Source of the DNA: Truepera sp.
GTDB taxonomy: Bacteria > Deinococcota > Deinococci > Deinococcales > Trueperaceae
Direction: 5' to 3'
NCBI GenBank assembly: GCA_965218435.1
Contig: CBDCKW010000009.1
Coordinates: forward strand, 3,880,607 to 3,944,606
Length of the DNA stretch: 64,000 bases
Part shown: positions 42,578 through 60,758 of the stretch, in pieces
Position numbering within the stretch: the stretch's first letter is position 1
How the letters are laid out: every line of letters begins with the position of its first letter
Translations under genes and position numbers: made by a program
Notes under the pieces: model-generated
The model's database searches: none
What the model was told of the DNA's origin: nothing
The model's input: the letters and a program-made list of their open reading frames with translations, nothing else

Positions 42578-43629
42578 ATTAAATCATCTGCGAAATAAGT
42601 ACACGATCAGAATAAAGTAGCTAGGCTTAGAGAAAGGGTTTAAGTCGGCTTACCAAGCCAGAGCATCTAACTTTCTGAAGTTATGAAGCCCCGCGATAGC
42701 TAAGAAAGTGTCATCATAAACAGCTTTTGGGCCTCGGTAGATACCCGCTAAGAGCTTAAAGCGTTTCAAGTGAGCCAGTGTGTGCTCGACAGGAAAACGC
42801 AGGCTGTTTTGAACTTTGTTGAGGCATTTCTGGATGAAGTCCAGGGGTTTGTTTCTTCTAGCTTTGCTGGGCTGATGGAAGGTTCTATGGGGAAAATCCT
42901 TATCAATACCGTCATATCCTTTGTCCACTCGGACCTCGGTAGCCGTAGGTAAAGCTCGTAACACCCCGGTACCTCTAAGGACGTTGACGTCGCTGAATTT
43001 GCCTGGTAAAGAACGTGTCACATGAAGGATAAGCTTTGTGTTGGTGGCAGTGATTTGGGTCTTGAGCGTATGTCGCTTTTTCTTACCTGAATACTTGTCT
43101 CTGCGTTCTTGCTTGTCTTTGGGTTTCTGGATTTCTTGCTCGGTAGCATCAACCAAGACTTCCTTGAACTCAGGATGCTGCTCAAGCAGTTCTTCTAGGC
43201 TTGCGATACGCTTTCTTTTAGCTTGACCAAAAAGAACTGTCTCGTGCGCTGGTAAGGGGAGAACCTCAAGTAGTACAGGTCGAAGTTTGCTGATCAAACG
43301 GCTGACGTTACTATCATCCAAGTTGAATAAGTAGCCTAGTAGCAGCTGGGTCAGGTACAAACGGTAATACAGCAGCACCCCTAAAACCTGATCCTCTACC
43401 CCTAGTTCTGCCTTGCGTCCCCCGCCTACTGCACGTTGACGTAATTTGCCCTGGGTGCCTTTTGGTTCGGCAAGGCGTACTTCGACCGCTTTACTAAGCA
43501 ACTTGAACTGCTCGACGCTTAAACCTGTGAAGTTATACAGATGCTTGGGCTTTCTCTTTAAGCGGCTCGCTTTCATCCTGCTAGTTTAGTCCTTTGACTC
43601 CTTCGGCGCTATTTCGCAGATGATTTAAT
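42578..43629 (-). mobile_element. IS5-like insertion sequence
   Basis: Perfect 20-bp inverted repeat ATTAAATCATCTGCGAAATA at both ends. Confidence 0.9.
42650..43576 (-). CDS. Transposase (HTH plus DDE_Tnp_4-type, IS5/ISL2-like)
   Basis: VDATEQ..YSGKKKRHTLK..D..VDKGY..R.PVEH..LKRF; intact frame. Confidence 0.9.
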   Translation of the reverse strand: MKASRLKRKPKHLYNFTGLSVEQFKLLSKAVEVRLAEPKGTQGKLRQRAVGGGRKAELGVEDQVLGVLLYYRLYLTQLLLGYLFNLDDSNVSRLISKLRPVLLEVLPLPAHETVLFGQAKRKRIASLEELLEQHPEFKEVLVDATEQEIQKPKDKQERRDKYSGKKKRHTLKTQITATNTKLILHVTRSLPGKFSDVNVLRGTGVLRALPTATEVRVDKGYDGIDKDFPHRTFHQPSKARRNKPLDFIQKCLNKVQNSLRFPVEHTLAHLKRFKLLAGIYRGPKAVYDDTFLAIAGLHNFRKLDALAW

Positions 43630-44574
43630 TGATTTCCGATAGGTCTAGAAGCCCGCTCTGGACGTTTGCAACTCTGAGATATGGCCGAGCTTTATCTCTA
43701 GGTCTGTTCTGCGGACTTTTCTGAATTCCATAAGAAATACTTGCAACTTCTCCAAGAGAACGCACCGGAAAATGCGACTTATAAACATCCGAAGCGCCTG
43801 TCGAAACACGAGCCAGATAGTTGACGCTCCAACGCTCTAAGTCTTTCCATTCAAGAGCAAATGCCTTTGGCAGTATCCGCTCAACGTCGCGTATAGGAAT
43901 TCCAAGCTGTGAAAGCAAATACTGAGGAGTTAGCGCCTCCAAGTCTGTTAACCGTGCAGTTGCGTCCGCAATCTCCCGCTGCGCCTGCTGCCACTTGTCT
44001 ACGATAGCCTGTTGGATATGCAGCGGCGGCAGAGGAACATCCATACTCTCGATTTGCTCAGGCTGGACTCTCTTGCGTCCACTCGCACCGCTAATCATGC
44101 TGTTGATGGCTCTCCGAAAGTAAGCGGTGCGGAAGAGCAGTTGAACGTACTGTGTCACGGCGACATCCGCATGAACTTTATAGACGGGGTACTCGCTGCT
44201 TACTGCGGCCTCGGGTATGTCATCCGGGACGATGCCAATAGCACCATTGCGAACATCAATTTTGGAATAGAGGATGTCACCGGCCTCAGCTTGAAAAAGT
44301 TTTCCCTTAAACTGCTTTTTGCCCCGCAAGTCTCGAGGCGCTACGCTGCCGTCAAAGTGCAGCGTCAAGAGTTGAAGAGACTCGAGCGAAAGCGTCTTTC
44401 TACTTACTTCGGTTTGCTTCCGCCGTAAAGCTGCAGACAAGGGTTTGATGTACGCTTTGGGCCAGTGCCAAGCAACGCTAAAAAATGATGAAGGGCTCCA
44501 AAAGTCTAAATCTTTGAACCAAACCCCAAACGCTTTGGGAGAAGCTTTTGCTGCTAGTGCTGTTTGCACTGCTG

Positions 44575-46899
44575 TCACTGGGCGGCCCCCAACATAAATG
44601 CGGCAGCGTCTTTTTTGAACTGCTGATAGAGCGCCAAGCACGTGGTTTCCGGGGTAACGCCTTCCGGTAACTCGGTAGTTTCGTTGCTGTAAAGCTCATT
44701 CTGGTCGGCTTCACCGGTTGCAGTGATGCCTACCTTGTCGGCTTCGTAGAGAAACACGGGATAGGCAAAACGCTCCCTTAGAAGTGCTCTGGTTTCCTGC
44801 TTTTTCTGCTCGTCCATACGCCGCTGATACTCGAGCAACTCTCTTTGCGTGTCTTTGCGCCTTGTTTGTTCAGCAAGGATGAGGGTCTCGAGGCTCTGTA
44901 CCTCTACTTCATCCGGCGCTTCGGTTTTGCGCAATTTTCTCAGCTTGGTTTGTGCCTGAGTTGCGGCGGTTTTAGCTGTTTGACTGAGGGTTTCTAACCG
45001 TGCGGTTTCTTTAGCTATTTCAGGAGCATATTTGGCCTCGACTTCTGCTCTGGCAGCCTCACGTTTGGCTTCAAAATCAGCCTTTTGCTCTTCGGTAAAC
45101 TTCTGTAAAAAGAGCAGCGAGGCTTTGACGGTTGCACCTGATGCGTAAAACGTCTCTTGCGGCAAGCTGACCACGGTCTGAATATAGGCGCGGTCTTCGC
45201 AAAACTCGCGTACATAGGCAAGGCTTGGGTTATTAAAGATACCTTCAGGCAGCACGATACCTAAGCGCCCGCCGGGTTTGAGCAGGTCTAAACAGCGTTC
45301 GATAAAGAGAATTTCGGTTTTGATTTTGCTTTTTTCACCTTTGGGCAGCGCGAAGAGGCTCGAGATAGGTTTGCCTTCTTGGGCGCGTACCCGCCTCTGC
45401 GCTTCTTCGTAAAGCGCACCGTAGTCACGTCGGTAGCGGGCCTCGGTCTCTTCGTCAACCGGCGGCAGGTGAACCACATCGGACGCTTCAACACTGGCCC
45501 CAAAAGGTGGGTTGGTCAAGATAATGTCGAAGCGTCCCTCAAAGATACCGTTGACGTTCAAAAAGCCGTCGTGGTGATGGACGCCGCCATGTCCGTCGCC
45601 GTGCATAATCATGTTCATCTTGCTGGTTCTCGCCATGCGTTCGTTCGCGTCGGTGCCGTAAATGCAGCGGTTGGCAAGCGTCCAGAGTTTTGAGCCCTTG
45701 ATGCTCTGGTCAAGCGTTTTCTGAAGCTCTTTATACCGCGCATCAAGCTGTGCAGCTTTCTCTTCTTCGGTAAACAAGGTGTTAGTTTCGACCTCAGCCT
45801 TATAGCTTTGATACTCCTTATCAGCCTCGGCTAAGATTTGCTGCCGCACAATCTCAAAAAAGCGTATGAGGAAGCCGCCCGAGCCGCTAGCCGGGTCGCA
45901 AATTACATCTTTCTCTTTGGGCTCAACCATCCGAATCATAAACTCTACGATGCTCCGGGGCGTAAAAAACTGCCCGATTTCACCCCGAAAGGTGCGGCCT
46001 AAAAACTTCTCGAATGCAATGCCTTTAACGTCTTCGCTGGTTTCAGAGAGGTCGTAACGCTCGAGTTCCTTAACAATTTCACGGACGGTATTGAACTTGA
46101 GGCTGATGGTTTCGTCAAGGTCGAAAATCTTGTCAGCTTTATACTCTTTCTTGGTTTGCTTAAAAAGGTCGTCAACAGGGTCGTCCACGTAAACTTTTTG
46201 TTTGTCTAAAAAAGCTGCCGTAAAAAGATTTTCTCTTACACGCCCTGCTCTAAGACGCCTTTCGTGAGTTACTTTGACAAACAAAATCTTGGCAATTTCA
46301 TCAAAAGCTGCTGCCGGGTCGAGCTTTTCACGGTTACGGATGATGTTGTGACATTTATGCAAAAGGTCGGCGAACTCGTTTTCCTTAAAGACCTTGAGTT
46401 TTTTGAGGAGCGTGTCAATCTCTTTGTCGCTGTCATCTGCGTGAGGGATGTCGCTTATTTCCTCGAGTGACTTGGGCATTCTTTCGTGCAGCACACGCCA
46501 GTATTTGGTTTCGCTGTTGTTATGCGTCACCAAAAAACGCGCGTTGGTATAGCGTGCATAGTTGTCGCCCTGCCAGTAGTCCTCTTGGGTGATGGTGACG
46601 TTATCGGATTTGCACTCAACGGCTATGAGCGGGCTTTTATTGTCCAATTTGTCTTGTGGCGTGCGCCAGACGAGAAAGTCTGCTCGAGCGTTACCCGTAC
46701 CGCGCCCGGTTGTATTCAGCTCTTCAGCAATCTGCTTGAGGGAAAAGCCGTATTCGTTGACGAGCATTAAAAGATACTCTTGCCTTACGCGCTCTTCGGG
46801 CTGTTCCTCTAACCATATTTCTCTGACATGGCTCCATATCTTGCTGCCCTGACGTTTTAGCGCGAGGCGAGTTTGAGATGTTTCGGACGTTGTGGTCAT
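44575..46899 (-). CDS. Fused restriction nuclease/N6-adenine DNA methyltransferase (Type IIG/IIB-like)
   Basis: N-terminal PEERVRQ..ADF..VECK nuclease; GQFFTPR, DPASGSGGF, NPPF. Confidence 0.9.
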   Translation of the reverse strand: MTTTSETSQTRLALKRQGSKIWSHVREIWLEEQPEERVRQEYLLMLVNEYGFSLKQIAEELNTTGRGTGNARADFLVWRTPQDKLDNKSPLIAVECKSDNVTITQEDYWQGDNYARYTNARFLVTHNNSETKYWRVLHERMPKSLEEISDIPHADDSDKEIDTLLKKLKVFKENEFADLLHKCHNIIRNREKLDPAAAFDEIAKILFVKVTHERRLRAGRVRENLFTAAFLDKQKVYVDDPVDDLFKQTKKEYKADKIFDLDETISLKFNTVREIVKELERYDLSETSEDVKGIAFEKFLGRTFRGEIGQFFTPRSIVEFMIRMVEPKEKDVICDPASGSGGFLIRFFEIVRQQILAEADKEYQSYKAEVETNTLFTEEEKAAQLDARYKELQKTLDQSIKGSKLWTLANRCIYGTDANERMARTSKMNMIMHGDGHGGVHHHDGFLNVNGIFEGRFDIILTNPPFGASVEASDVVHLPPVDEETEARYRRDYGALYEEAQRRVRAQEGKPISSLFALPKGEKSKIKTEILFIERCLDLLKPGGRLGIVLPEGIFNNPSLAYVREFCEDRAYIQTVVSLPQETFYASGATVKASLLFLQKFTEEQKADFEAKREAARAEVEAKYAPEIAKETARLETLSQTAKTAATQAQTKLRKLRKTEAPDEVEVQSLETLILAEQTRRKDTQRELLEYQRRMDEQKKQETRALLRERFAYPVFLYEADKVGITATGEADQNELYSNETTELPEGVTPETTCLALYQQFKKDAAAFMLGAAQ

Positions 46900-47594: not shown

Positions 47595-49670
47595 TTACGG
47601 GTAACTGACGACGTTTCTTGGCGTCGTATTTCCCGCCGGGTTCGGTACCGCTCCGCCGGTGTTGTTGACGACATTCAAGATCGTTCCAACATCTCCTAGC
47701 GACACGGTTAAGACGCTGCGTAGGCGCACGCCGGGGGTATTGGGCACCTCAAAACCGCGCGAGGCGACGATATTCGGGTCGGAGAAAAAGACGCAGTACG
47801 CGCCGCCGCCGTAAAGTTCATGGTTGCGCACGTTGTCGGCGACTTTGTACGACGCCCACCCTTGACCCGTCGGACTCTGCCAAGCCGCTTGCGAGGGCGG
47901 GTCGTAGGGCATCTCGTTTTGGAAGAAGATCGTCTTACCGTTTTCGCCGTTCCAGATGACCTGATACTTTTGGTAGTGCTCGACGAACAGACCGGTCGCC
48001 AGCACATCGTCGCCATTGACGATCACGCCGCTAGCGGCGGTATTTTGGTTCCAACCGATCCCCGCGCCGTGGTCACCGCGCCACGCCCAGATATGGTCAA
48101 TCACGGTGTCGTCACTGTTGACGACCAAACTGACGGCAGATTTGCCCGCACGGGGGCCGCCGATACGGAAGTAGACGTCTTGGATGACGATAGGGTTGGC
48201 GGCGTGGCCTCGGCTCGAGCCCGCTTCGCCAACCGTAAGCAAAACGGGGCTGTTGACCGGTCCGGCGTCGAAGAGAATCCCGGCGACGATAACCCCGTCT
48301 ACATCGGCGACGCTCATCGCGTTGACGCCGTTTTCCGGTACCAGCGTCGGATAGCCGAGGCCGTAGATGACCGTGTTGGGCCGCGTGACCTTTAAGGTTT
48401 CGCTGAGCCGGTACACGCCGGGCGTAAAGAACAAGTTGAGACCTTGGGCCAGAGCCGCGTTGAGCGTTGCGGTACCGTCGCTCGGTTTGGCAACGTAAAA
48501 GTTTCTGAGCGGAACGGAAGTGCCCGGGGTATTGGGCCAGGTTGCGCCTCTCGAGTTTCTCTGTAACGCCGGGACAAACACGCTGTAGTTGCCCGCGCCA
48601 TCGATGTAAAGGTAGGGTTTTTCGCGCGTGACCGGGGTGGTATCTAACGTCGTGTGCGGTGGGTTCGGGAACGCCTGCGGCGGCGCACCCTGCACGCCTG
48701 AAAAGACCATGTTCCAGACGCCGCCGTCCCACCCTCTACCGAAGCTGCTGTTCCGGGTGTACCACTGCTGCTGCGAGCCCGAGCCGATACCCCCGTCTAT
48801 TCGGGCGTCAGCCAGATACCCCCCACTCGCGTAGCCCTGCCCAAAATCCTGATTCGACGGGGCCATCGTGAAATTACCCTTGATGTGAACGCGGCGCATG
48901 GGCGCGGCTTGCGATACTGCCCAGCGCGTGGTGCCGCCTTCGGGCGCGACCGAGAGGTTTTCTGCTGAGCGCCAAAAGTTTTGCGTGGCGTTTTTTTCGT
49001 CGCCTAAGTTCCAGCCGCTGTCTACGTTGATATTGCGGGTGATCGTGACGTCGTCGGGGTTTTTACCTAGACCCGCAACCGTCGTATAAAAACCCAGGTT
49101 GGCAAACACGTTGTAGCTACCGGGTTTGAACAAAAAGGTGTCGCGCTGACTGCCGAACTGCGCGGTAGAGCTGAGGAGCAGCCGGTTAAAAGCCGCGTCG
49201 AGGTCGCGCTGAATCACCGAGTCGGGGGTGCTGTCGTCGTAGATTTTGACGTTCGGGCCGAAGTCGGGGCGGTCGGAAGTCGGCAGGTTCGTCGTGGGGT
49301 TGCCGGTGCGTGTTACCCGAACAGAGCTCACGAGATCGTTGAAGTTGTTGTCTACCAAACAGCTGTCATCCCCGGTTAACGTAAGGCTGCGCCCCTGATA
49401 ATTCGCGTCGAGAAAGAGTTCGACTTGGTAGCCGTCGGCGACCCGGACGGAAGAAACGTTGTCGTTGGGCATTCCGAGGGCGATAAGGTCGTTGTAGTTG
49501 TAATCCCCTGCGTCTAAACTCACACTCTTCCCGCTAAATGAACAGTCCAGATATAGTTTTACGTCACCGACAGCAGTTGCGTCTAGGAGCTGGTTACTCT
49601 TTTCGGGGGTGCTACACGCACCCAGTAACAGGGTCAACCCAACGAGCAGGGCAAAAAGTTTTTGGGACAT
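47595..49670 (-). CDS. Lipoprotein: beta/gamma-crystallin domain plus GH55-like exo-beta-1,3-glucanase
   Basis: Lipobox LLGAC; NDNVSS/NDLVSS; ATQNFWRSAEN, WAVSQAAP, SQQQW, FQNEMPYDPP. Confidence 0.85.
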   Translation of the reverse strand: MSQKLFALLVGLTLLLGACSTPEKSNQLLDATAVGDVKLYLDCSFSGKSVSLDAGDYNYNDLIALGMPNDNVSSVRVADGYQVELFLDANYQGRSLTLTGDDSCLVDNNFNDLVSSVRVTRTGNPTTNLPTSDRPDFGPNVKIYDDSTPDSVIQRDLDAAFNRLLLSSTAQFGSQRDTFLFKPGSYNVFANLGFYTTVAGLGKNPDDVTITRNINVDSGWNLGDEKNATQNFWRSAENLSVAPEGGTTRWAVSQAAPMRRVHIKGNFTMAPSNQDFGQGYASGGYLADARIDGGIGSGSQQQWYTRNSSFGRGWDGGVWNMVFSGVQGAPPQAFPNPPHTTLDTTPVTREKPYLYIDGAGNYSVFVPALQRNSRGATWPNTPGTSVPLRNFYVAKPSDGTATLNAALAQGLNLFFTPGVYRLSETLKVTRPNTVIYGLGYPTLVPENGVNAMSVADVDGVIVAGILFDAGPVNSPVLLTVGEAGSSRGHAANPIVIQDVYFRIGGPRAGKSAVSLVVNSDDTVIDHIWAWRGDHGAGIGWNQNTAASGVIVNGDDVLATGLFVEHYQKYQVIWNGENGKTIFFQNEMPYDPPSQAAWQSPTGQGWASYKVADNVRNHELYGGGAYCVFFSDPNIVASRGFEVPNTPGVRLRSVLTVSLGDVGTILNVVNNTGGAVPNPAGNTTPRNVVSYP

Positions 49671-49795
49671 TAGGTATCCTTTCGTAAATGAAGTTTGGAA
49701 CGGGACTCGAGCGGCGCTTTAGGCGTTCTAAAATGCCGCCCCAGTGGCTTTCAAAGTTTTCTCTACAGGATTAAGTCGCCTCAGAAATGACAGTT

Positions 49796-51547
49796 TTACC
49801 AGCCGACGATCACATCTACCTGGCGCGGATTAGGGTTCTGTAGCAAGGTGCTCTTCTCAAATACGTCGTCGTAAGCGAAACCGTAAGCTTTGCCGTCAAG
49901 GCTGCGGTCGTGCCAGAACTTGGCGTAAAAGTTCGCCGGGGCGTTGCGGTAATAGAGGCTATCGTCGGCCCAGCGGCTGGGGTCTACGTCGATCACCACG
50001 TGGCGGTTGATAGCGGCGGCGAGCTGCGCCTCGACGACCTTCTCGAGGTCACTCCCGCGAGCAAACGCGCCGCTGGCCTCGAACACTTCGATGCTGCTCG
50101 GTTTGTTGACCACCAGACCCGCTGGCCCCCCATCTCTGGCGAATACGAAATTATCCCCCTGCACGCGGCCTCTAAAGGTACCCGCCTGATTCGTCAGCAC
50201 CAGGTCACGGCCCCGGTAGGTGTCCCAAATCTGATTGATGTAGGGGTTAAAGTAGCCCGCTTGTGAACGTCCGGCGGCGAACTCTCCGGCTTTAGGTGCG
50301 ACGATGCGGTAGGGCCGCCGGACCAAGGAGCGGAACTCGGCTTGTGGCAAGTTGGCGAAGTCGTTAAAAATCTGTGCGCGGGAGACGTTTTCACCCAGAG
50401 TGCGGTCAAAACCGTCGTTGGAGACGAGGCGGAGCCGCGTGGGAAAGCCAAACTGGTCAACGCGGGTCGTGTTCCCGAAAAACCCGATGTCGTTATAGGT
50501 GAATTCGCCGAAATCGAACACCACGTCTTGGTTGGGGTCTGAGGGGTTGTTGATGTCGGGTCCGGCAAACCCGACGCCGCCCGGTACCCCTAAAACCTCG
50601 AGAAACATCGGCGAACCGACGCTCAAAAAGATGCGGGCACCGTACATCTTAGGCAAGGTAAAGGTGCCGACGTCGCTCACGCGGTTAAAGTAATTCGCGT
50701 AGTTTTTGCCATTCTTGCTGAGGTGACCCGGCGCGGTGTTGTCTCCCGGCGACGCAGCCACCAAGTTGCCGCTGCGGTTGAGGTACGAGAGCGCGTTGTT
50801 CGCCGGATTATAGCCGAGGATGGCCCAGTACACCTGAGCATCCGGGTAAGCTCCGTTCGTCTGGTTGAGGACCCGAAAATTGATCCGCCCGGCCGGGGCT
50901 GGCGGCAAGATGACGCCACCGCCGTTACCGCCGCCGGTGCCGGTGCCAGTGGCCCACGGATCGTAGATATTCCAGCTGGCGTCTTGGTCGAAGCTGTTGG
51001 GCGTATCACTTTTTAGCGGTCCACCTCTTTGGGCCAACCACACCTCAGCGTTAAAGTGCCGCAGATAACGGCCGGGAAAGTTCTTCGATTCAAACGAGAT
51101 ACCCGTACCCGAAAGTCCGTCGCGCCCGCACCAGGTGGCGTCTCGCTTAAATAAATCGCTGTTGTCGTTACGGTCTAAGCGGACCCGCGAAGCCTGATGT
51201 CGTAAAAACGAACCGGGATAGTTGAGCGACTCTAAAGAGTAGCAGCTCGAGTCGGCCAATCCGGGGACGACCTTCCAGGTGGCATCTTGTTTGAGCAGGT
51301 CGGCGCTGCCCGAATTCACAATTTCAGTAAAGCCCAAGCCGCCCGCGTGCCGGAGGAAGCGGTTCGTCAAACCGGGAGTCGTCACCTGAAACGACTGATA
51401 CTGACCCACGCGCGGCGTTACCGCTTGAGGGGTGAGGGTCGGTGCGTCTAAACCGCAGGCGCTCAGGATCAGACCGAGCAGTACCAGCAAAACTGTTTTG
51501 ATACCTAAGTTTTTCGCTGTCAGGGTTGTAGCACGTCTTCGGTTCAT
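49796..51547 (-). CDS. Lipoprotein: AbfB/CBM42-like trefoil plus GH64 beta-1,3-glucanase
   Basis: Lipobox ILSAC; SLESLNYPGSFLRH/DATW repeats; EFTYN..NTTRVDQF, AYGFAYDDV. Confidence 0.87.
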   Translation of the reverse strand: MNRRRATTLTAKNLGIKTVLLVLLGLILSACGLDAPTLTPQAVTPRVGQYQSFQVTTPGLTNRFLRHAGGLGFTEIVNSGSADLLKQDATWKVVPGLADSSCYSLESLNYPGSFLRHQASRVRLDRNDNSDLFKRDATWCGRDGLSGTGISFESKNFPGRYLRHFNAEVWLAQRGGPLKSDTPNSFDQDASWNIYDPWATGTGTGGGNGGGVILPPAPAGRINFRVLNQTNGAYPDAQVYWAILGYNPANNALSYLNRSGNLVAASPGDNTAPGHLSKNGKNYANYFNRVSDVGTFTLPKMYGARIFLSVGSPMFLEVLGVPGGVGFAGPDINNPSDPNQDVVFDFGEFTYNDIGFFGNTTRVDQFGFPTRLRLVSNDGFDRTLGENVSRAQIFNDFANLPQAEFRSLVRRPYRIVAPKAGEFAAGRSQAGYFNPYINQIWDTYRGRDLVLTNQAGTFRGRVQGDNFVFARDGGPAGLVVNKPSSIEVFEASGAFARGSDLEKVVEAQLAAAINRHVVIDVDPSRWADDSLYYRNAPANFYAKFWHDRSLDGKAYGFAYDDVFEKSTLLQNPNPRQVDVIVGW

Positions 51548-51596
51548 AACGTCCTTTCTTTATTGGGGCTTAGGGAATCTTCTACTGATCTAAGCT

Positions 51597-53057
51597 CTAG
51601 TCCGTTACCAGCGGGTCGAGCTGTTTAGCAAACGGATAGCCGTCACGGGCGTCCCAATCGAGCCGCCAGTCAAACACCCCTTTGACCTGCGGGTAGCGGG
51701 CCTCGAGCTTCTTAAAGGTGTCAACGACTGAGTCAATTTTCCAGTAGTTATTGAGTTCGTTGTTGACGCCGAAACCGACTACTACGTTCTGTGGCCCCAT
51801 TAAAGCCATCCAGATTTTAATGTTTTCTAACAAGTAAGCGGGGTCTGAAAGGTCGGGGCCGTCGTAGTACTGCGGCGCACAGTAGTCGAGCGCACCGGCG
51901 TCCAACATAGCTTTACAAAACTGCTGGTCGCGTTTATTCCACGGTGCGGGCGGCGCGGTGATTAAAAAGCCGGGATAACGGCGCTTAAGTTCTTTGGCAA
52001 CCCAGATCATTTCAGGCGTATTGGGGTCGGCTTCGGCCTCGAAGGTATTAAAGTCCAGGCCGTCAAAGCCGCCCCACGCGTTGTAAAACTTCACGACGCT
52101 GTTCACGAAGTTTTGCGACACGTTGCGGTCGGTAAAGCGGACCGCTTGCCCCGCCCCACCTGCTGAAAGGATAAACTTGCGCCCCTGCCGACGGGAGAGC
52201 TGCATATCTGCGGCCCAGTTGGTCCAGGCACCGTTTCCATCGGGGGGCGCGGCAAACTTCAGCGTACCGGCAGGCTCGCCCCCGGCTTGGGTAGCCGAAA
52301 ACAGATAGATCAGGTTGTAATTGGGGTCAATGTCTTTAAGGCGTGGGACGCTCCCGGCAAAGGTCGCGTAATAGGCGGCGACGACCTTATTCCCATTTCC
52401 GCTAGGGGGCGTGGGCGGTTGCGGGGCCTCACAGGTGGTGGGTTGCCAGTACCAAGTGCTGATCGTCGGGTCGGTTTCGTCGGTGCCTCCAGCGACGACG
52501 TTGACGACCTTGTAGTAGCGTCCGTTAGCCGGATAGAGCGCAACGTCGCCGAGCTGATAGTTCGTCCCGGGCGTCCAGGTCAGGGCGTGACAAGTATTGG
52601 CGCTCGCCGTGCGCGTGACCCGCACCGAGCTCACGAGATCGTTGAAGTTGTTATCTATCAAACAGCTGTCATCCCCGGTTAACGTGAGGCTGCGGCCCTG
52701 ATAATTCGCGTCGAGAAAGAGTTCGACTTGGTAGCCGTCGGCGACCCGGACGGAAGAAACGTTGTCGTTGGGCATTCCGAGGGCGATAAGGTCGTTGTAG
52801 TTGTAATTACCTGCGCCCAACTGAACGCTCTCACCTGAGAAATTGCAGTCCAGATAGAGCACAACCGCACCGGTAGCTGCACTGACGAGTTGCGGCGGCG
52901 CGGCAGCGGGCGTGGTGACTACGTTACACGCGCTGAGGAGAAAGAGTAGCCCTGCTGCGAGTAGGGTAACGAGGGCAGGTTTAGAACGGCGCTGGTTGCG
53001 CTGCGTCGCTGGTAAAAACTCTGCGAGGGGTGACGGAAGGTTGGGTCGGTCTTTCAT
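51597..53057 (-). CDS. Lipoprotein: crystallin domain, CBM5/12-like domain and atypical GH18 domain
   Basis: Lipobox LLSAC; WTPGTNYQLGD; YNLIYLF, LSAGGAG, FDGLDFNTFE, APQYYD. Confidence 0.75.
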   Translation of the reverse strand: MKDRPNLPSPLAEFLPATQRNQRRSKPALVTLLAAGLLFLLSACNVVTTPAAAPPQLVSAATGAVVLYLDCNFSGESVQLGAGNYNYNDLIALGMPNDNVSSVRVADGYQVELFLDANYQGRSLTLTGDDSCLIDNNFNDLVSSVRVTRTASANTCHALTWTPGTNYQLGDVALYPANGRYYKVVNVVAGGTDETDPTISTWYWQPTTCEAPQPPTPPSGNGNKVVAAYYATFAGSVPRLKDIDPNYNLIYLFSATQAGGEPAGTLKFAAPPDGNGAWTNWAADMQLSRRQGRKFILSAGGAGQAVRFTDRNVSQNFVNSVVKFYNAWGGFDGLDFNTFEAEADPNTPEMIWVAKELKRRYPGFLITAPPAPWNKRDQQFCKAMLDAGALDYCAPQYYDGPDLSDPAYLLENIKIWMALMGPQNVVVGFGVNNELNNYWKIDSVVDTFKKLEARYPQVKGVFDWRLDWDARDGYPFAKQLDPLVTD

Positions 53058-53144
53058 AATAGTTCACCTCGGAGGGTGCTGCTAAAATTACCGGTTGCTC
53101 GGCGGCTGAGTACGTACTCAGCCGTTAATTAGACCCTCGAGGGG

Positions 53145-54932
53145 TTACTTCAGCGCGTTATAGATCGTTTTGCTGAGCGTCGCATTCCGATCTTCGCCGT
53201 CCATTGACCAGGCCATCGAGCCGCCCAAGCCCCGCTGCTTGATGTAGTTCATCTTGATGGTTAAGACTTCAGGATCGTCGTAGCTCCAGAACTCGTTACC
53301 GTCAAACTTCCACATTTGCTTGGTGACACTGCTGCGGTAGACGGACCCGGGTTTGTTAACGAGTACGTTGTAGTTGTCAATCCCCGCTTCGTACTCACCT
53401 TGAGGGATACCGCTCGCACTCTGGTAAAGGCCGTTGTTGGCGCTCCCGACGCCGCGCCAGCCGCGCCCGTAGTACGGTACGCCGACGACGAGTTTTTGTG
53501 CCGGTGCGCCTGCGCGTAAGTAGGTATTGACGGCGGTGTCTACGCTCCAGGTTTTTTCTTCGGCACCGCCGGGGCTCGCCGGGTCGGTATAGAGGTTCGA
53601 GTGAAAATTGGTCGGGCCAGTGGTCGCCCAACCGCCCCGGAAGTCGTAGGTCATTACGTTCATCAGGTCGAGCGAACGGGCGATGTTGGTGACCTCGAGC
53701 TTCCCGATTTTCGACGTTGCGGCGGGCAGCGCCGCAGTCAGGAGTTTGCCGCTCCCGGTTGCATCAAGTTGACGGCGAAACTCTTCTAACAAAAGCGTAA
53801 AGTTGCGCGTGTCTTCAGCCTGGACGATGTTCCCGGTGTTGCCTTCACTGCCGGGGTACTCCCAATCGATGTCGATGCCGTCAAACACGCCCAGCGCACT
53901 GCCGGGGCCACCCGCGCCGTCAGCTACCGGCAAGTTCCCTTTGATATAGATGTCTACACAGCTGCTGACGAACTTTTTACGGGCCGCGTCGGTTAAGGCC
54001 ACGTCGCTGAAGTTTTTGCTCCACGTCCAGCCACCGAGTGAAATAAGGACTCTGAGCCCCGGATACTTGGCTTTAAGTTCTTTAAGCTGATTGAAGTTAC
54101 CCTTGAGCTTTTGATCCCACACGTCAGCCACGCCGTCTACACTCTCACTACCGGTAAACGCCTTGCCGTAGTCGGCAAACGAATCGCTGATCCCCGGCGC
54201 GGTCACAGTACAGGTTCCTTCGGGCGTGATGCCGCCGAAGGCGTAGTTAAGGTGCGTCAGCGTCGCGGCTGCGCCGCTCCGGTCCATATCGGCGAGTCTG
54301 AAGTTACGCGTGTAGATGCCCCACTGCACAAAGTAACCGACGCGTTTGTAGCCGCCGGTGTTCGGGGGCGGTGGGGTGACGGTAGCCTTGGCGATCTTGA
54401 ACGACGAGGCTTTGTCGTTAAAGTCGGCGGGTAAAGCCGGAGTATCGGCGGAGAAGGTCTTAGCCGCGCCGCCGTAGTTGATGTCATCAAAAAGCTGAAC
54501 CTGATAGCCGCTCTGAACCTTGACCGAACTGATGCGGTCGTTCCACGCGGAGCCGACCCACGAGCTGTCGGCGTCGGCGCAGAACGACGCGCCGCCGTAG
54601 TTGCCGTTTTCAAAAAAGCACGCGGTCCCGCTGGCTGGTGGGGGTGGCGGCGTGGTGCCGCCACTACACCCGTCAGTTACTTTCGTCCACGGTTGACCGC
54701 TTCCTTCAGGGCCGCTATTTGTCGCCGGATTGTTGCCCTGCGTCCACCAGTTCGCCTTATAGGTCACGCCGTTATAGACGACCGTGTCGCCAGCGGTATA
54801 AGCGGTAGTTGCGTTCCAGGCTACGCAGCTGACTGCCTGCGTCCCGACCTCGGCGGCGGGTTCAGGGAGCTTAGAGGTGTTGCAGCTCGCAAGCAGCAGC
54901 GCGAGTCCGGCGATTTTCCACATTCCGTTCAT
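53145..54932 (-). CDS. Lipoprotein chitinase: CBM5/12, crystallin domain and GH18
   Basis: Lipobox LLASC; AWNATTAY..YKANWWTQG; SLGGWTWS, FDGIDIDWEYP, MTYDF. Confidence 0.93.
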   Translation of the reverse strand: MNGMWKIAGLALLLASCNTSKLPEPAAEVGTQAVSCVAWNATTAYTAGDTVVYNGVTYKANWWTQGNNPATNSGPEGSGQPWTKVTDGCSGGTTPPPPPASGTACFFENGNYGGASFCADADSSWVGSAWNDRISSVKVQSGYQVQLFDDINYGGAAKTFSADTPALPADFNDKASSFKIAKATVTPPPPNTGGYKRVGYFVQWGIYTRNFRLADMDRSGAAATLTHLNYAFGGITPEGTCTVTAPGISDSFADYGKAFTGSESVDGVADVWDQKLKGNFNQLKELKAKYPGLRVLISLGGWTWSKNFSDVALTDAARKKFVSSCVDIYIKGNLPVADGAGGPGSALGVFDGIDIDWEYPGSEGNTGNIVQAEDTRNFTLLLEEFRRQLDATGSGKLLTAALPAATSKIGKLEVTNIARSLDLMNVMTYDFRGGWATTGPTNFHSNLYTDPASPGGAEEKTWSVDTAVNTYLRAGAPAQKLVVGVPYYGRGWRGVGSANNGLYQSASGIPQGEYEAGIDNYNVLVNKPGSVYRSSVTKQMWKFDGNEFWSYDDPEVLTIKMNYIKQRGLGGSMAWSMDGEDRNATLSKTIYNALK

Positions 54933-54992
54933 CTTTTCTCCTTTGACTGTTGGTTCTACCCTGTAGCGCAAAACTAAAGCTAGCCAACAGCG

Positions 54993-56447
54993 TTAGTAGG
55001 CTACAAACTCAACTCGGCCGAGCGATACGCCGTCGTTATTCGCGCGGATGGTTAGGGTCTGAGTGCCTGCGCCGATACCGGCAAAATCAACGTTGACAGT
55101 CTGTCCCCGGTCAAACGAAAGAGGGATGGTGCGTCCGGCAAACCCAACCGTAATTGAGCGGCTATCCGAGCTACTGTTACTCGTAACCTTAAGCCGCAGA
55201 TTGGCTGAGCGCGTGACGTTGACGCTCCAGCTTTTCGTGGCACCGTTGCCGATCCCGCCGACGCTACTACTCACTACGCCGGGAGCGTTGACGCTGCCGG
55301 ACGGTGCCCCGGTATTGTTGATAATCTTAAATGACGACACTCGGTCGTTAAAGCCAAAGTCGACGAATGAGCCGTAATCACCGTTAAGGGCGTAACCCTG
55401 GCCACCAAAGTTAATGTCATCAAACACCTGGACTTGGTAGCCGCTTTTGACCTTAACCGAGCTGATCCGGTCGTTCCAAGCGTTGCCTACCCAGCTACTA
55501 TCGCCGTCGGCGCAAAACGAAGCACCACGGTACTGGGTATCTTCGTAAAAACACACGTTTCCACCGCTGCCGCCGGGCCTGCCATAAATTGCGGCGATGG
55601 CGTTCAGGTCACCTTGGGTAAAGCCGTTGATCTCATCGTTGCCGACGCGTTCGGGCGGAAAGCCGTTTTTAGGGACATAATCCCAGCGGCCGTTTACAAA
55701 GTAGTTACGGTAGTGCATCATCGACTGAAAGTCGTACGGGCCGATCGGGGTGCCCGCCGAGCCGTAGTCGATTGCGTTTTGACTGCCGCCCGCGTTGACC
55801 ACAACCCACTGGTCGCGGTCTTGTCGCACCTGTTCGTGGGCCAGCCCGACCGCGTGCCCCAGTTCGTGACGGGCTGGGTTGACGCCGCAGCCATTTCCAA
55901 GCGACAACTCTTGTCTACCGCCGATTCTGCCGATATACGACCAGCAGCCATTTTTAGAGACGACGCTGACATAATCGGCTTGACTCGTCCGGGGCACGAA
56001 ACGGACGACGGTTTTGGCGTCGTAGTCGGTTTTGGCCTTCAAGAAGGCGTCACGGTCAACTTGCGTTGCGCCGGGGTCGAAAACGTAAGGGATGACCGCG
56101 CCCGGCCACTTTTGACCGGTCGCATTGACGATACCCGAGCCTTGGGGGGCAAGCGCATTGCTGTCAAGTCGCCGTAAAACCTGTTTGTCCGGTGCAATAA
56201 GGGTTTGCCCCTCGAGCCGAGCAATTGCAACATCCCCGACAAAAGCGTGATCGCCTTTAAGCACCGCAGTTACGGGTTGCTTAAAGCCTAAGAGTCTGGC
56301 CTTAAACTCCTGACCTTGAGGGTGCTGTGAGGCGTAGAGTAGGTCACTCTTAGCAGTGACAGGCGCAGTACTGTCTCTGTCTAAACTGCTACAAGCTGCC
56401 AATAGTACTAGTAGTCCGGCCATAGCAAATGAAAAGCTCTTCATCAT
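54993..56447 (-). CDS. Lipoprotein: astacin (M12A) metalloprotease, crystallin domain and C-terminal beta-sandwich
   Basis: Lipobox LLAAC; GCWSYIG, HELGHAVGLAHEQVRQDRD, Met-turn SMMHY. Confidence 0.9.
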   Translation of the reverse strand: MMKSFSFAMAGLLVLLAACSSLDRDSTAPVTAKSDLLYASQHPQGQEFKARLLGFKQPVTAVLKGDHAFVGDVAIARLEGQTLIAPDKQVLRRLDSNALAPQGSGIVNATGQKWPGAVIPYVFDPGATQVDRDAFLKAKTDYDAKTVVRFVPRTSQADYVSVVSKNGCWSYIGRIGGRQELSLGNGCGVNPARHELGHAVGLAHEQVRQDRDQWVVVNAGGSQNAIDYGSAGTPIGPYDFQSMMHYRNYFVNGRWDYVPKNGFPPERVGNDEINGFTQGDLNAIAAIYGRPGGSGGNVCFYEDTQYRGASFCADGDSSWVGNAWNDRISSVKVKSGYQVQVFDDINFGGQGYALNGDYGSFVDFGFNDRVSSFKIINNTGAPSGSVNAPGVVSSSVGGIGNGATKSWSVNVTRSANLRLKVTSNSSSDSRSITVGFAGRTIPLSFDRGQTVNVDFAGIGAGTQTLTIRANNDGVSLGRVEFVAY

Positions 56448-56558
56448 TTTCGCTTTTTCTCCTTGTGGGCTCGGTCATAAAATAGTTTCGCCAGGGGAGT
56501 AAGCCCGTGTTGAGTCCGTTTCAAACGCGGCTCCTCGTTTCCCCAGGTGATGCGGACG

Positions 56559-56597
56559 CCTAAGAGACCATTTCCGACCAAGGTTGGGTCTCTTAGG
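56559..56597. repeat. Intergenic inverted repeat
   Basis: CCTAAGAGACC...GGTCTCTTAGG between the GH81 and astacin genes. Confidence 0.6.
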
Positions 56598-56684
56598 TAC
56601 TAGGGCGTTCGGTCCTAGTTCTCTCAGGGTTGTCCGTTACATAACGCCTCCTTCAAGGTGTGGCGGCTACCGTTAAAACCGCCC

Positions 56685-59546
56685 TTAGAACGTGACGAAT
56701 TCAACCTTGCCGAGCGAAACGCCGTCGTTATCAGCGCGGATACTTAAGGTTTGGCTGCCCGCCCCAATCCCCGGAAAATCTATGTTGAGAGTCTGGCCCG
56801 CGTCGTACGAGAGCGGAATGGTGCGCCCGGTGAAGCTCACCGTAAGCGAGCGGCTGTTTAAGGTGCCCGCAGCGGTAACTTTGAGGCGTAAGTTAGCTGC
56901 CCTGGTCACGTTAAGTTGCCAGGTTTTGCTCGAGCCGTTCGCTACTGCGCCCGCATTTTCCGTTACGACGCCCGGAACGTTGACGCTGCCCGCAGGCGGG
57001 GGCGTGCTGAGCTGAGAAATCTTAAACGATGAGGCTTGATCGTTGAAGTCGGGCAGTGACGCAGCGTCGCCGGTCAATGTCTTGCTCGAGCCGCCGTAGT
57101 TGCTGTCCCAGTAGAGCTGGACTTGATAACCGGATTTAACCTTAACTGAGCTGATACGGTCGTTCCAGGCGCTGCCGACCCAGCTGCTGCTGGCGTCGGC
57201 GCAAAACGACGCGCCCTGGTAGTTGTTGTGTTCAAAAAAGCACGCGACGCCGCTCGGGGCCGGGGGTGGCGGTGTGGTCCCGCCTCCACTACCGCGTGAC
57301 GTAGCGAGGGAACGCGCTGGGACGTCTAAGCGGCCACCGTCTGAATAGGTTACGGTCGTTGCAGCGTTGCCGGGGTTATACGCCACGTAGGTACGCGCGG
57401 TCCCTTTGTCAAAGGCGACGGCTGTGGGAGAGCTCGAGGTCAACCCAAAAACCGGACGCCCCAGCGCGTTGAGGTTGTGAATCCAGTGATAGGTAAACGC
57501 TTTAGACTGCCCCTCTTCGGGGGTGTACCCCGGATTGGCGTCAAACCTCGAGATCGCTGCGGCCGGGTCCGTAAGCGCCAGATAGCTCCACCAGATATCT
57601 TGCCAGACCCCCGGTTCGCCACCTTTTTCGCTGATCATGTGGTTCCAGTTCGTCTTGATGTAATCGGGGCGGCTGCCCAGATATATCGAACCGGGTTGAA
57701 TCGGTAAGAGGTTGATGCCCTGAATCTTTTCAGGTTCGGCGGTAAACCACGTCGAGTACGACCCCCCGTCGCCCCAGTTCATCCCGACGGCCGGGTGCCG
57801 AAAGTCGCTCGGGTAGACGGCGTCATCAACGTCAAACCAGTACTGCTCGATGGCGCTGACTTCGGTGGCGTAGAGGTACTCGCCCAGGTCGCGGATGCCA
57901 GCGTCGCCAATCGCTGCGCCCCAGAGCACGACGCCGGTCGCAAAGTTGATGGCTTCAGATGACGATTCGTTGTTGTTGCCCGCCGCAAACCCGGCGTGAC
58001 CCGACGCCCACGAGTGTCCGGCGTAGGGGTCGAAGTTGCGGAGTTTGGGGAAGCGGCTGTCCTGACCGGGGTTGGCGGCGTCAAAAATTAGGTCGTTGAT
58101 CTGGTTTTTCCATTGCTGTGCCCAATCGGGGTCGTACACTGAAATGGCGGCGGCGGCCTGCACGAAGTAGCCGTAGTGAAAGTGATGATCGTTGAGTTCA
58201 GTATCCGAGCCATACGAAGCCGGGTAGCCGATCAGCGTACCCCACACGTCGTCGTAAGCGAAGTATTGTGGGCCGCCCGGGGTGAGCCACGCCTCGAGCG
58301 ACGCTTTCATATTGTTCAAAAAGGCGTCTCTAGCCCCCGTGTTGCCGAGCTGAGCCGCGATATGCGCTAAATCTCCGGCGCGGCCTAAACTTTTACCGAC
58401 CCAGTAGGTATCGTTCCCGGTGATGCCCGGTTTCGCCGCCGCTTCGTTCACATAGCCCGCCAAGCGGTTGCGGTCATAAGTCCCGAGGTCGGGCAAGGTC
58501 GGCAAGACGCCGCTGAATTTAAGACTGGTCGAAAAGCTGTTGCCGTTCAAAACTTTCATGGTGCTGCGGGCCGAATTGTAGGTGTAGCCGGTCAGCGCCG
58601 CGCTGCTGTTTAACCACTGATGCCGGTACAAAGCCATCAAGGGCCGCGTTTCCGCCCCCTCTTTGACTTGCGTCGTCGCCGTGTAGGTTGTGGTGATATT
58701 GCCGTTATCCACACGGTACGTGACTTTGGTATCGGTGACGAACGCAAAGGCGTGCTGCGCGAACTCGTTTAAGGTTGAACCGTTCCGGTCGGGCAGCGCC
58801 GCGACGGAGAAGTAATCTTTGCCGCCTAGGTTCGAGCGGAGCGTATTGCCGCTGATACTCCAACTCGAGCCCGCCGGGGCAAAGAGCCCGTAGTCGCGAC
58901 CGCGAATCGAGACGCCGACGACGTTGCCGTTATTTGCCCACACGTCCGGCGCACCGTTAAAGGTGACCTGCGCGTCGCCGCCGGTTTTGGTCGCGTACAC
59001 GTACGGTAGGCCGTGGCCGAAGGTGGCCCGCAGGCTCGAGCCCCCGCCACTCCAGTAAGCGCTGACGGTCCAGTCGCTGTATCCGTCTAACTTCGCGTCC
59101 GGTGAGCTGAGCCCGGCGACGCCGAGCGTAAAGTCTTTGGTGTAGGTATATTCGTATTTGCGCTGATCCGGGGTAATCACATACGTTTTCGGATACGAGA
59201 CGCCCAAACCGCCCGCTTCGGCTTGCATCGCCAAAGGGTGCGCGTGCATGGTTGTGCTGTAGGGGTTATCTGGGTAACGCTGAAAGACGAGCGACGACCA
59301 CCAGTCGTTCGTCGGAGTGGGGCCACGGACGTTCGCGGTTCGCTTCGGCGCAACCGGTGTGCCGACGTTGTTCTCCGGGCCTCTGGCACCGGGGGGCAAG
59401 GCGCTGGTGACAAGTTCGGGCTCGGCGGGTGCGCTGTTATCCCCCAACTGCGTACAAGACGTGATACCGAGTAGGAGCAGCGCCCCTAACCCGGCGGCGC
59501 GGAGTCCTGTTCGTCTGCTTTTGCTCAAGTACTTTGGTAGATTCAT
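56685..59546 (-). CDS. Lipoprotein: GH81 endo-beta-1,3-glucanase, crystallin domain and C-terminal beta-sandwich
   Basis: Lipobox-like ITSC; PTNDWWSS, LNDHHFHYGY, GHSWASG, ESSSEA. Start MNLPKY after GAGG. Confidence 0.92.
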   Translation of the reverse strand: MNLPKYLSKSRRTGLRAAGLGALLLLGITSCTQLGDNSAPAEPELVTSALPPGARGPENNVGTPVAPKRTANVRGPTPTNDWWSSLVFQRYPDNPYSTTMHAHPLAMQAEAGGLGVSYPKTYVITPDQRKYEYTYTKDFTLGVAGLSSPDAKLDGYSDWTVSAYWSGGGSSLRATFGHGLPYVYATKTGGDAQVTFNGAPDVWANNGNVVGVSIRGRDYGLFAPAGSSWSISGNTLRSNLGGKDYFSVAALPDRNGSTLNEFAQHAFAFVTDTKVTYRVDNGNITTTYTATTQVKEGAETRPLMALYRHQWLNSSAALTGYTYNSARSTMKVLNGNSFSTSLKFSGVLPTLPDLGTYDRNRLAGYVNEAAAKPGITGNDTYWVGKSLGRAGDLAHIAAQLGNTGARDAFLNNMKASLEAWLTPGGPQYFAYDDVWGTLIGYPASYGSDTELNDHHFHYGYFVQAAAAISVYDPDWAQQWKNQINDLIFDAANPGQDSRFPKLRNFDPYAGHSWASGHAGFAAGNNNESSSEAINFATGVVLWGAAIGDAGIRDLGEYLYATEVSAIEQYWFDVDDAVYPSDFRHPAVGMNWGDGGSYSTWFTAEPEKIQGINLLPIQPGSIYLGSRPDYIKTNWNHMISEKGGEPGVWQDIWWSYLALTDPAAAISRFDANPGYTPEEGQSKAFTYHWIHNLNALGRPVFGLTSSSPTAVAFDKGTARTYVAYNPGNAATTVTYSDGGRLDVPARSLATSRGSGGGTTPPPPAPSGVACFFEHNNYQGASFCADASSSWVGSAWNDRISSVKVKSGYQVQLYWDSNYGGSSKTLTGDAASLPDFNDQASSFKISQLSTPPPAGSVNVPGVVTENAGAVANGSSKTWQLNVTRAANLRLKVTAAGTLNSRSLTVSFTGRTIPLSYDAGQTLNIDFPGIGAGSQTLSIRADNDGVSLGKVEFVTF

Positions 59547-59658
59547 AGCTTCCTCTTTTCTTAGTTGGCTGCCGGGGTAGACGGTGGAGGCGTAGACGTT
59601 ACGGAAACGACAGTTAAGGGATTTCGGCATTTGAGGTCGAGGTCTTGACCTCTAAGCG

Positions 59659-60690
59659 TTATCCGGGTAAGCCGGGGCCTCTTTTGACCGGCGCAGTAGA
59701 GCCCCGCACGACGAGCGTCGTCGGCAGGCTGATACGGGGGACGGCGGCTTCGCTCCCTTTAAGGAGTGAGAGTAAAACCCGGGTTGCGGCTGCGCCCATG
59801 TCGGCGAGCGGTTGGCGGACGGTGGTCAGCGGCGGATAGACCTGCGCGGCAGACGGAATGTCGTCAAAACCGACGACCGATACGTCGGCGGGGACGCGCA
59901 AACCGAGTTCGTGCGCCGCCGCTACCGCCCCGAACGCCGACACGTCGTTGGCAGCAAAAAGTGCGGTTGGGCGCTCAGGTAAGCGCAGAAGTTCGGTTGC
60001 GGCCTGAAAACTGCGGGGTTGATAAAAGTCGCCGGGCCGGACGAGCGCCTCGTCAAAAGGCAGACCTGCGGCTTGCAACCCCTCGCGGTAACCGCGCAAG
60101 CGCTCAGCGGCCGCGCCGGTCGCCGGGTCGCCGGTTACGAACCCGATACGGCGGTGACCGAGTTCGGCGAGGTGCGCGACCGCGCTGCGCGCACCTCCGA
60201 GATTGTCGGTGCCGACCGTCGGCAAGCGGGTGTTTGCGCCGCGGTGGTCAACAATGACGACCGGTAAAGTAAGTTGCTCGAGCATCGCTAGGTGATACTC
60301 AATCGTTTTTGGCAGCACCGTCAACAGCCCGTCGGCCAGCCCTCCGGCAGCGAGGCCGAAGAGCCGTTTGCGTTCGCGTTCCGGGTCGCGGTGCGTCGTA
60401 TAGAGCAGCAGGTCGTACCCGGAATGCTCGAGCGCGTCCCCTACGCCGCGGACAATCTCACCGACATATTCGGTGCCGATGTCGGGGACCAACATCCCGA
60501 GCACCTGCGTTTGGCCTCCCGCCAAGCGTTTGGCCTGTACGTTGGCCACATAGCCGAGGCTCTGCGCCACAGCCTGCACCCGTTCCCGGGTACGTTCAGA
60601 AACACCTGACTGATTGTTGAGCGCCCTCGAGACCGTCATCGCCGAAACCTCTGCTAAACGTGCAATATCGTGAATCGTAGGTACAGAGAT
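59659..60690 (-). CDS. LacI-family transcriptional regulator
   Basis: In-frame upstream sequence completes the HTH ([22 protein letters not shown]); [17 protein letters not shown]. Probable non-canonical ATC start. Confidence 0.9.
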
Positions 60691-60718
60691 AGCTACGTTC
60701 CCCCCTTCTTGTTTGTTC

Positions 60719-60758
60719 GTTAGCGGTAACTTTAGCGGTAACGCTCTCTTTTTGTCAA
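60719..60758 (-). promoter_or_regulatory. sigma70 promoter overlapped by tandem LacI-type operators
   Basis: TTGACA-N18-TAAAGT; GTTAGCGGTAAC and TTTAGCGGTAAC at 60719-60742. Confidence 0.7.

Follow-up and report, generated by a model that had tools for sequence, protein, structure and literature searches.

Five of the six lipoprotein enzymes encoded in one gene cluster of a Truepera sp. genome carry a small beta/gamma-crystallin domain of the Ca2+ type, which most likely helps its enzymes to stick to or survive on a wall rather than to assemble into a complex. We tentatively read this domain as a Ca2+-braced tethering module.

A cluster of six lipid-anchored enzymes

The cluster lies in a stretch of 64,000 nucleotides that was analysed as a whole (the window), and it consists of a gene for a LacI-family regulator followed by six large open reading frames (ORFs) arranged head to tail, all on the minus strand and all six with a lipobox. 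Crystallin domains, of two subtypes called A and B here, are found on the lipoprotein GH81, astacin, GH55 and two GH18 enzymes, whereas the GH64 enzyme has an AbfB trefoil instead. The features are the following.

60718..60758, minus strand: sigma-70-like promoter that precedes the regulator gene and has two tandem 12-mers resembling LacI-type operators (best of 3 sites)
59659..60696, minus strand: LacI-family regulator at the head of the cluster (the ORF caller starts it at 60639; the HTH extends upstream in frame)
56685..59630, minus strand: GH81 endo-beta-1,3-glucanase lipoprotein with a lipobox, built as GH81 - crystallin A - 101-aa jelly roll (PF17652, E 2e-65)
57015-57245, minus strand: subtype A crystallin on GH81, after the catalytic part
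56688-56990, minus strand: 101-aa jelly roll on GH81 (no Pfam family; model pLDDT 81)
54993..56447, minus strand: astacin (M12A) zinc protease lipoprotein, built as astacin - crystallin A - 101-aa jelly roll (PF01400, E 2e-33)
55320-55556, minus strand: subtype A crystallin on the astacin, after the protease
54996-55298, minus strand: second copy of the 101-aa jelly roll, on the astacin
53145..54971, minus strand: GH18a chitinase lipoprotein, built as CBM5/12 - crystallin A - GH18 (DxDxE intact; Pfam)
54390-54623, minus strand: subtype A crystallin on GH18a, between the CBM5/12 and the barrel
51597..53057, minus strand: GH18b chitinase-like lipoprotein, built as crystallin B - CBM5/12-like segment - divergent GH18 barrel
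52614-52865, minus strand: subtype B (flavollin-like) crystallin on GH18b, N-terminal (3hzb, E 3e-16)
49796..51547, minus strand: GH64 beta-1,3-glucanase lipoprotein with an AbfB beta-trefoil and without a crystallin (PF16483, PF05270; 5h4e, E 4e-94)
47595..49670, minus strand: GH55 exo-beta-1,3-glucanase lipoprotein, built as crystallin B - GH55 (4pew, E 1e-196)
49311-49562, minus strand: subtype B crystallin on GH55, N-terminal (3hzb, E 2e-16)

The HExxHxxGxxH motif and the Met-turn of the astacin are intact, and 4pew, the match of the GH55 enzyme, is presumably itself a GH55 structure. No Pfam GH18 match was found for GH18b, which is matched by the PDB chitinases 4tx8, 5kz6 and 3n11 (E 7e-15 to 1e-11); its catalytic motif is atypical, with Asn-Thr-Phe-Glu replacing the DxE spacing, and is kept in another genome (G002) and in a paralog that is 93% identical and lies on contig C5 of the source genome (G000; 335708-337123). 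A partial third copy, 89% identical, lies on contig C9 of the same genome (166575-167192). Near the C5 paralog, a GH30 protein with a CBM6 and two CBM32 (L018:2357-5140) is possibly a beta-1,6-glucanase. No NCBIfam family was over its cut-off for any of the six enzymes.

Beta-1,3-glucan (the substrate of families GH81, GH64 and GH55), chitin (that of the two GH18 proteins) and protein (that of the astacin) are the main parts of the fungal wall. We infer that this wall is the target of the cluster, which the six lipid-anchored secreted enzymes would digest together, and the cluster hints that some Truepera-like bacteria feed on fungal walls. Homologs close to the enzymes carry the label Truepera.

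The tandem 12-mers upstream of the regulator gene would act as operators, and similar boxes precede the corresponding gene in G002 and in a third genome, G005; the promoter and terminator scans were at chance level, with 3 promoter sites compared to 3.7 in shuffled sequences. At the beginning of the LacI gene (60694-60696, minus strand), the window reads GTA, whereas in G002 and G005 a GTG follows a ribosome-binding site at this place, and starting at the next ATG would cost the HTH its first helix; production of the repressor may be poor, or translation may use an unusual start. G005 has a related LacI cluster, in which the module sits on an astacin and, as subtype B, on an alpha-1,3-glucanase, a GH19, a PL14 and a GH16-GH55 protein. 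Downstream of the window cluster, a low-GC stretch (42650-46899, minus strand) encodes a type I-like restriction-modification fusion (HSDR_N plus N6 methylase), a specificity subunit and then a DDE transposase. Two contig sets cover 30 of 30 bins; they may be the source sample, and this coverage has no bearing on expression.

Two subtypes of Ca2+-type crystallin domain

Each of the five domains, which are 77-84 aa long, contains two N/D-N/D-x-x-S/T-S motifs (10/10 motifs in 5/5 domains), described as the canonical Ca2+ motif of microbial crystallins in the accessible text of PMC8639718, together with a Y/FxxxxF/YxG hairpin in each Greek key (5/5 aligned domains). An earlier note made from this DNA had named these ten motifs and drawn the limits of the domains, which hold to within about 8 nt; its division into two subtypes, each with a conserved Cys pair, is also borne out, since identity is 92% between the two B copies, 64-77% among the three A copies and 36-40% between A and B, and since the Cys pairs lie at different places (C2/C15 in A, C7/C68 in B). 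As it had also described, the domains behave as a mobile module in the usual position of a CBM, at N-terminal, internal or C-terminal places on unrelated catalytic folds. They sit behind Pro/Gly/Thr linkers.

The crystallin fold was matched for both subtypes: Foldseek and VIA searches with a model of subtype A (pLDDT 95) gave clostrillin, flavollin and Protein S as top matches (Z about 15), and the two-Greek-key fold of subtype B was assigned via its sequence match to 3hzb (E 2e-16). The Pfam family PF00030 (Crystall, gathering threshold 25 bits) was exceeded by three of the five proteins, with GH18a (22.3) and GH81 (23.1) below it. When stop-to-stop ORFs of at least 300 aa were scanned across the genome (n=2137), a motif pair with crystallin spacing was found in only six, namely these five and the GH18b paralog on C5, despite 52 single motif matches in all, so that the pairing is not due to chance; a profile made from the five domains recovered the same six ORFs at E 5e-28 or better, the next ORF being at E 3.3. 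By fold, motifs and hairpins, the five domains are thus Ca2+-type crystallins, as the note had proposed, and they would be loaded with Ca2+ and closed by disulfides.

A different family name came out of Pfam for part of them: Inhibitor_I36 (PF03995) was over its cut-off for all five domains and ranked first for the three A copies, which, together with the fusion of one third of subtype A domains to zinc peptidases, would fit an SMPI-type protease inhibitor or shield that protects the enzymes from the co-secreted astacin, or restrains it. We regard this as highly improbable, since by structure and by sequence the domain is best matched by Ca2+-type crystallins and since most carriers are glycanases that have no protease encoded beside them. 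The Inhibitor_I36 model is moreover not specific, as ordinary crystallin repeat proteins also match it, and SMPI was absent among the best 50 structural matches listed for the subtype A model.

A second common module had been overlooked in the earlier note: GH81 and the astacin end in a C-terminal domain of 101 aa with 67/101 identical residues. VIA matched it at Z 11.7-10 to a GH115 domain, CBM6, CBM35 and CBM36, and the atlas search led to CBM6/35. Relatives were found on 19 proteins, with GH81, astacin, GH16 and subtilase among the carriers, and this jelly roll is itself a candidate for a new CBM.

Natural exchanges, spread and partners of the domain

Homologs of the window proteins were found to differ at the place of the crystallin. 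Between GH81 and the jelly roll, where the window protein has its crystallin, homologs have an AbfB (3), an Fn3 (2) or nothing (2), and the catalytic part of those with an empty slot is up to 86% identical. The GH55 enzyme encoded beside a GH128 is CBM32-CBM32-GH55 in the source genome and CBM32-crystallin-GH55 in Deinococcus rufus, and the GH18a ortholog of G005 is without a crystallin. The domain is thus dispensable and exchangeable with both binding and spacer domains. The two subtypes also replace each other: GH18b carries B in the window and A in G002, and GH55 carries B in the window and A in other genomes. The subtypes therefore appear to do one job, and, since B replaces A yet lacks the Trp described below, what they have in common is the Ca2+ motifs and the core. 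The CBM32-CBM32-GH55 protein of the source genome belongs to a second beta-glucan cluster on contig C9 (L100:945-6833), which encodes CBM32-CBM32-GH55, GH128-CBM32 and CBM32-DUF1996 proteins opposite a ROK regulator.

These exchanges bear on the other proposal of the earlier note, a Ca2+-dependent docking module that builds a cellulosome-like complex. As in a cellulosome, a Ca2+-binding module is reused, dockerin-like, on five co-encoded enzymes; it comes in two subtypes, and crystallin domains are known to pair. Unlike in a cellulosome, no cohesin, dockerin or scaffoldin was found: the genome had no match to PF00963 or PF00404 (0/1, with controls positive in 2/14), the cluster encodes no non-catalytic repeat protein, and each of the six enzymes has a lipobox of its own and would be anchored individually. 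Subtypes A and B are not plug and socket, because either takes the place of the other on GH18b and GH55 orthologs, most carrier loci (69/80) have no second gene of the reference set within 8 kb, and the other repeated module is the CBM-like jelly roll, present on few proteins (19 matches). Altogether, we consider docking improbable; a prediction of the complex of subtype A, subtype B and Ca2+ (score 0.00) bears neither way.

Secreted proteins of bacteria often bear crystallin domains (8921 clusters at E 0.001), and the representative search, dominated by tandem-repeat crystallin proteins, was used as a background set only. From 1048 domain matches, 631 had at least 70 of 79 columns filled and 499 remained after dereplication at 80%; subtype A was then delimited as 53 domains by binning on identity outside the loop and the cysteines. 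Judged by their sequences, these domains form a conserved clade across Deinococcota, Pseudomonadota and Myxococcota, with hosts among the Deinococcota, the Sphaerotilaceae and the Lysobacteraceae and in one myxobacterium. Their tree (53 domains, 79 columns) is poorly resolved, with support for 11 of 50 branches, and we therefore name no donor. The module itself was found in 4/41 and 4/128 genomes searched, with the source genome counted, and in 3/127 other genomes searched within the family.

Partners of subtype A are almost exclusively glucanases, chitinases, chitosanases and zinc peptidases. With a reference set made of families already met in the analysis, BLAST assigned 51 of the 53 domains, 33 of them to GH18/19/46/55/64/81 proteins (31 with purely glycoside hydrolase carriers and 2 on a single astacin-GH18 fusion) and 18 to zinc peptidases only (M66-like, astacin and BSP); one of the two unassigned carriers is a CBM5/12-GH18 protein according to Pfam. 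Among the 33 copies borne by glycoside hydrolases, 21 are also accompanied by a CBM56 or a jelly roll. Loci of M66-type carriers had no glycoside hydrolase of the reference set within 8 kb (0/22), and one of them (L044) has a GH18-looking neighbour. The Sphaerotilaceae loci L020, L021, L029 and others encode M66-like HExxH lipoproteins of about 680 aa with an N-terminal subtype A crystallin, and a plasmid search with the M66 domain returned one record only. Outside its LacI cluster, G005 has peptidases with two or three tandem copies, the triple set being on one HExxH protein.

Both Ca2+ motifs are intact in 52/53 subtype A domains. The pair C2 and C15 is present in 53/53, compared to 79/378 distant crystallins, and a Trp in the first loop, W22, in 47/53 (aromatic in 50/53), compared to 24/378; these counts are not independent events, as the 53 domains are kin, and they come from queries that held the scored residues and, for the genome scan, from a pattern covering columns 27-35. 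Neither the neighbour of W22 nor the corresponding column in the second Greek key is conserved (aromatic in 0/53). In subtype B, the Trp is absent and no conserved aromatic is a candidate for the surface.

A proposed tether, a rival stabiliser and the relatives of the domain

As a tether, the crystallin would be a small accessory domain, loaded with Ca2+, braced by its disulfide and mobile, acting in cis on its own enzyme; it would raise the residence of that enzyme on the wall as a second binding module of low specificity beside the usual CBM. Binding would take place via the region of the Ca2+ sites and, in subtype A, also via the Trp of the first loop, which would be exposed at the surface for glycan binding. 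A tether fits the free placement on unrelated folds, which a specific allosteric contact would not easily do, and the three tandem copies on the HExxH protein of G005 are avidity-like. We also counted in its favour the slot exchanges with AbfB and CBM32, the narrow spectrum of partners and the conservation of W22, as well as the recurrence of crystallin-peptidase fusions in other phyla, in contexts of chitin or fungal walls, as far as the accessible parts of the articles cited below describe them. A wall-binding role thus gains circumstantial support. Against it, we counted the GH81 slots that hold Fn3 or nothing together with the G005 GH18a ortholog that has no crystallin, the lack of a Trp or surface aromatic in subtype B, and the absence of reference-set glycanases beside M66-type carriers. 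The crystallin is not needed as a CBM either, because a recognised or likely CBM is usually present (the 21/33 above).

The close rival of the tether is a Ca2+-dependent stabiliser, rigid spacer or modulator of activity, in which two Ca2+ ions would harden the protein and the domain would keep CBM and catalytic domain apart, without contact to the substrate, and we give it a substantial, somewhat lower probability. It would account for the Ca2+ motifs being intact in nearly all subtype A domains and in all five window domains, for the frequent position of the crystallin between a CBM and a catalytic domain, for a slot that Fn3 or nothing can occupy as well, and for the interchange of A and B, though their common features are the Ca2+ motifs and core alone. 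Ca2+ stabilises microbial crystallins according to the accessible text of PMC8639718, and the sole experiment on record, cited in PMC8394091, is a more than 2-fold Ca2+ activation of a crystallin-GH64 protein; this activation would also fit Ca2+-dependent binding of the substrate. A stabiliser explains less well the triple tandem copies, the restriction of carriers to wall-type hydrolases and peptidases, and the conservation of W22 and S13 beyond the needs of distant crystallins, and a spacer less well the terminal crystallins (GH55, GH18b and the astacins of G005 and of myxobacteria), which space nothing except from the lipid anchor.

The activated protein, from C. beijerinckii, is reportedly the glucanallin of Krishnan et al. 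(2019), and we take 5h4e, the top match of the window GH64, to be its domain. Glucanallin likewise has a Ca2+-type crystallin on a secreted beta-1,3-glucanase, whereas in the window the GH64 enzyme is without one and five other enzymes carry it. Its gain in activity was seen in 1 mM Ca2+, as cited in PMC8394091. The earlier note had called the module unrecognised, which was overstated: the accessible texts place crystallins on a bacterial GH64 (PMC8394091), on a putative peptidase of a fungal cell wall utilisation locus in Chitinophaga pinensis (PMC10449523) and on a chitin-induced secreted protein of Andreprevotia (PMC8802321). Like the cluster, the C. pinensis locus is directed against chitin and beta-glucan from one place, as far as that text goes; it is a Bacteroidota PUL under ECF-sigma control, whereas the window cluster belongs to the Deinococcota, is headed by a LacI gene and encodes lipoproteins, five of them with the module, but no transporter. 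In the literature searched, largely open-access listings and passages, we found no polysaccharide-binding test of a crystallin with Ca2+ motifs, and neither subtype A as a clade nor a mycolytic cluster of Deinococcota. The parts consulted of 10.1101/127746, PMC11218486, PMC9325726 and PMC3551895 had little bearing.

The X409 domain of StcE and the M1M2 domains of RbmC (Pfam Crystall_4) resemble subtype A in having a crystallin fold, in being mobile and in occurring on M66 peptidases and even on a GH18. X409 aligned with the subtype A model at Z 9.4 (9gsm_B, rmsd 2.2, 75 aligned residues), and its invariant Cys pair in strands 1-2 (95/95) aligns with C2/C15. It differs in having no Ca2+ motifs, 15% identity and mucin O-glycan clusters as ligands. 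According to the available text of PMC12518865, X409 binds glycans via its b2-b3 loop, its b4-b5 loop and an Arg of b6; by strand order, these elements would correspond in subtype A to the W22 loop, the second hairpin with Ca2+ site 2, and a strand with a Ca2+ ligand and K75. Aligning the sequences gave no significant link (hhalign probability 0.1-3.5%), with Y828 one residue off W22, and PF17945 (Crystall_4) had no match among the cluster proteins at E 0.01. By sequence comparison, the cluster crystallin is not a member of X409, and it is not a dockerin either. An equation of X409 W854 and Y859 with conserved hairpin aromatics was dropped after alignments, and a correspondence at the level of loops alone is claimed. 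The likeness to X409, with the mucin binding of RbmC crystallin domains described in the accessible text of PMC10102183, was counted for a tether; the non-significant sequence link and the lack of Ca2+ motifs in X409 were counted against it.

A more specific reading, which we hold to be rather doubtful, is that subtype A is an unclassified Ca2+-dependent CBM family for a glycan of the fungal wall, a calcium-retaining cousin of X409 spread among Deinococcota, Pseudomonadota and Myxococcota. It would bind through the Trp of the loop together with the second hairpin and Ca2+ site 2, and would direct glucanases, chitinases and zinc peptidases to fungi; crystallin A would then mark M66-like peptidases and Truepera as mycolytic. 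Binding, if shown, would establish a new CBM family and provide a marker of mycolytic enzymes, and a negative result would mean a Ca2+ stabiliser. The cluster is a ready test set, with two subtypes, five unrelated catalytic domains and orthologs whose slot holds AbfB, CBM32, Fn3 or nothing.

The nearest solved relative of subtype B is flavollin of Flavobacterium johnsoniae (3hzb), with the same Cys positions, deposited as 'Carbohydrate binding protein', a name that is the depositor's label. A fungal GH29 with a crystallin is also on record (4ni3, a structural match). Clostrillin, the top structural match of subtype A (3snz, Z 15.1, rmsd 1.3), has a Trp-Val-Gly loop in the second Greek key, whereas subtype A has its Trp loop in the first, plus the C2/C15 pair. 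A lipoprotein crystallin on a 165-kb contig of G005 (L102:4160-5440) has a Trp-Val-Gly loop in the second Greek key, as clostrillin does.
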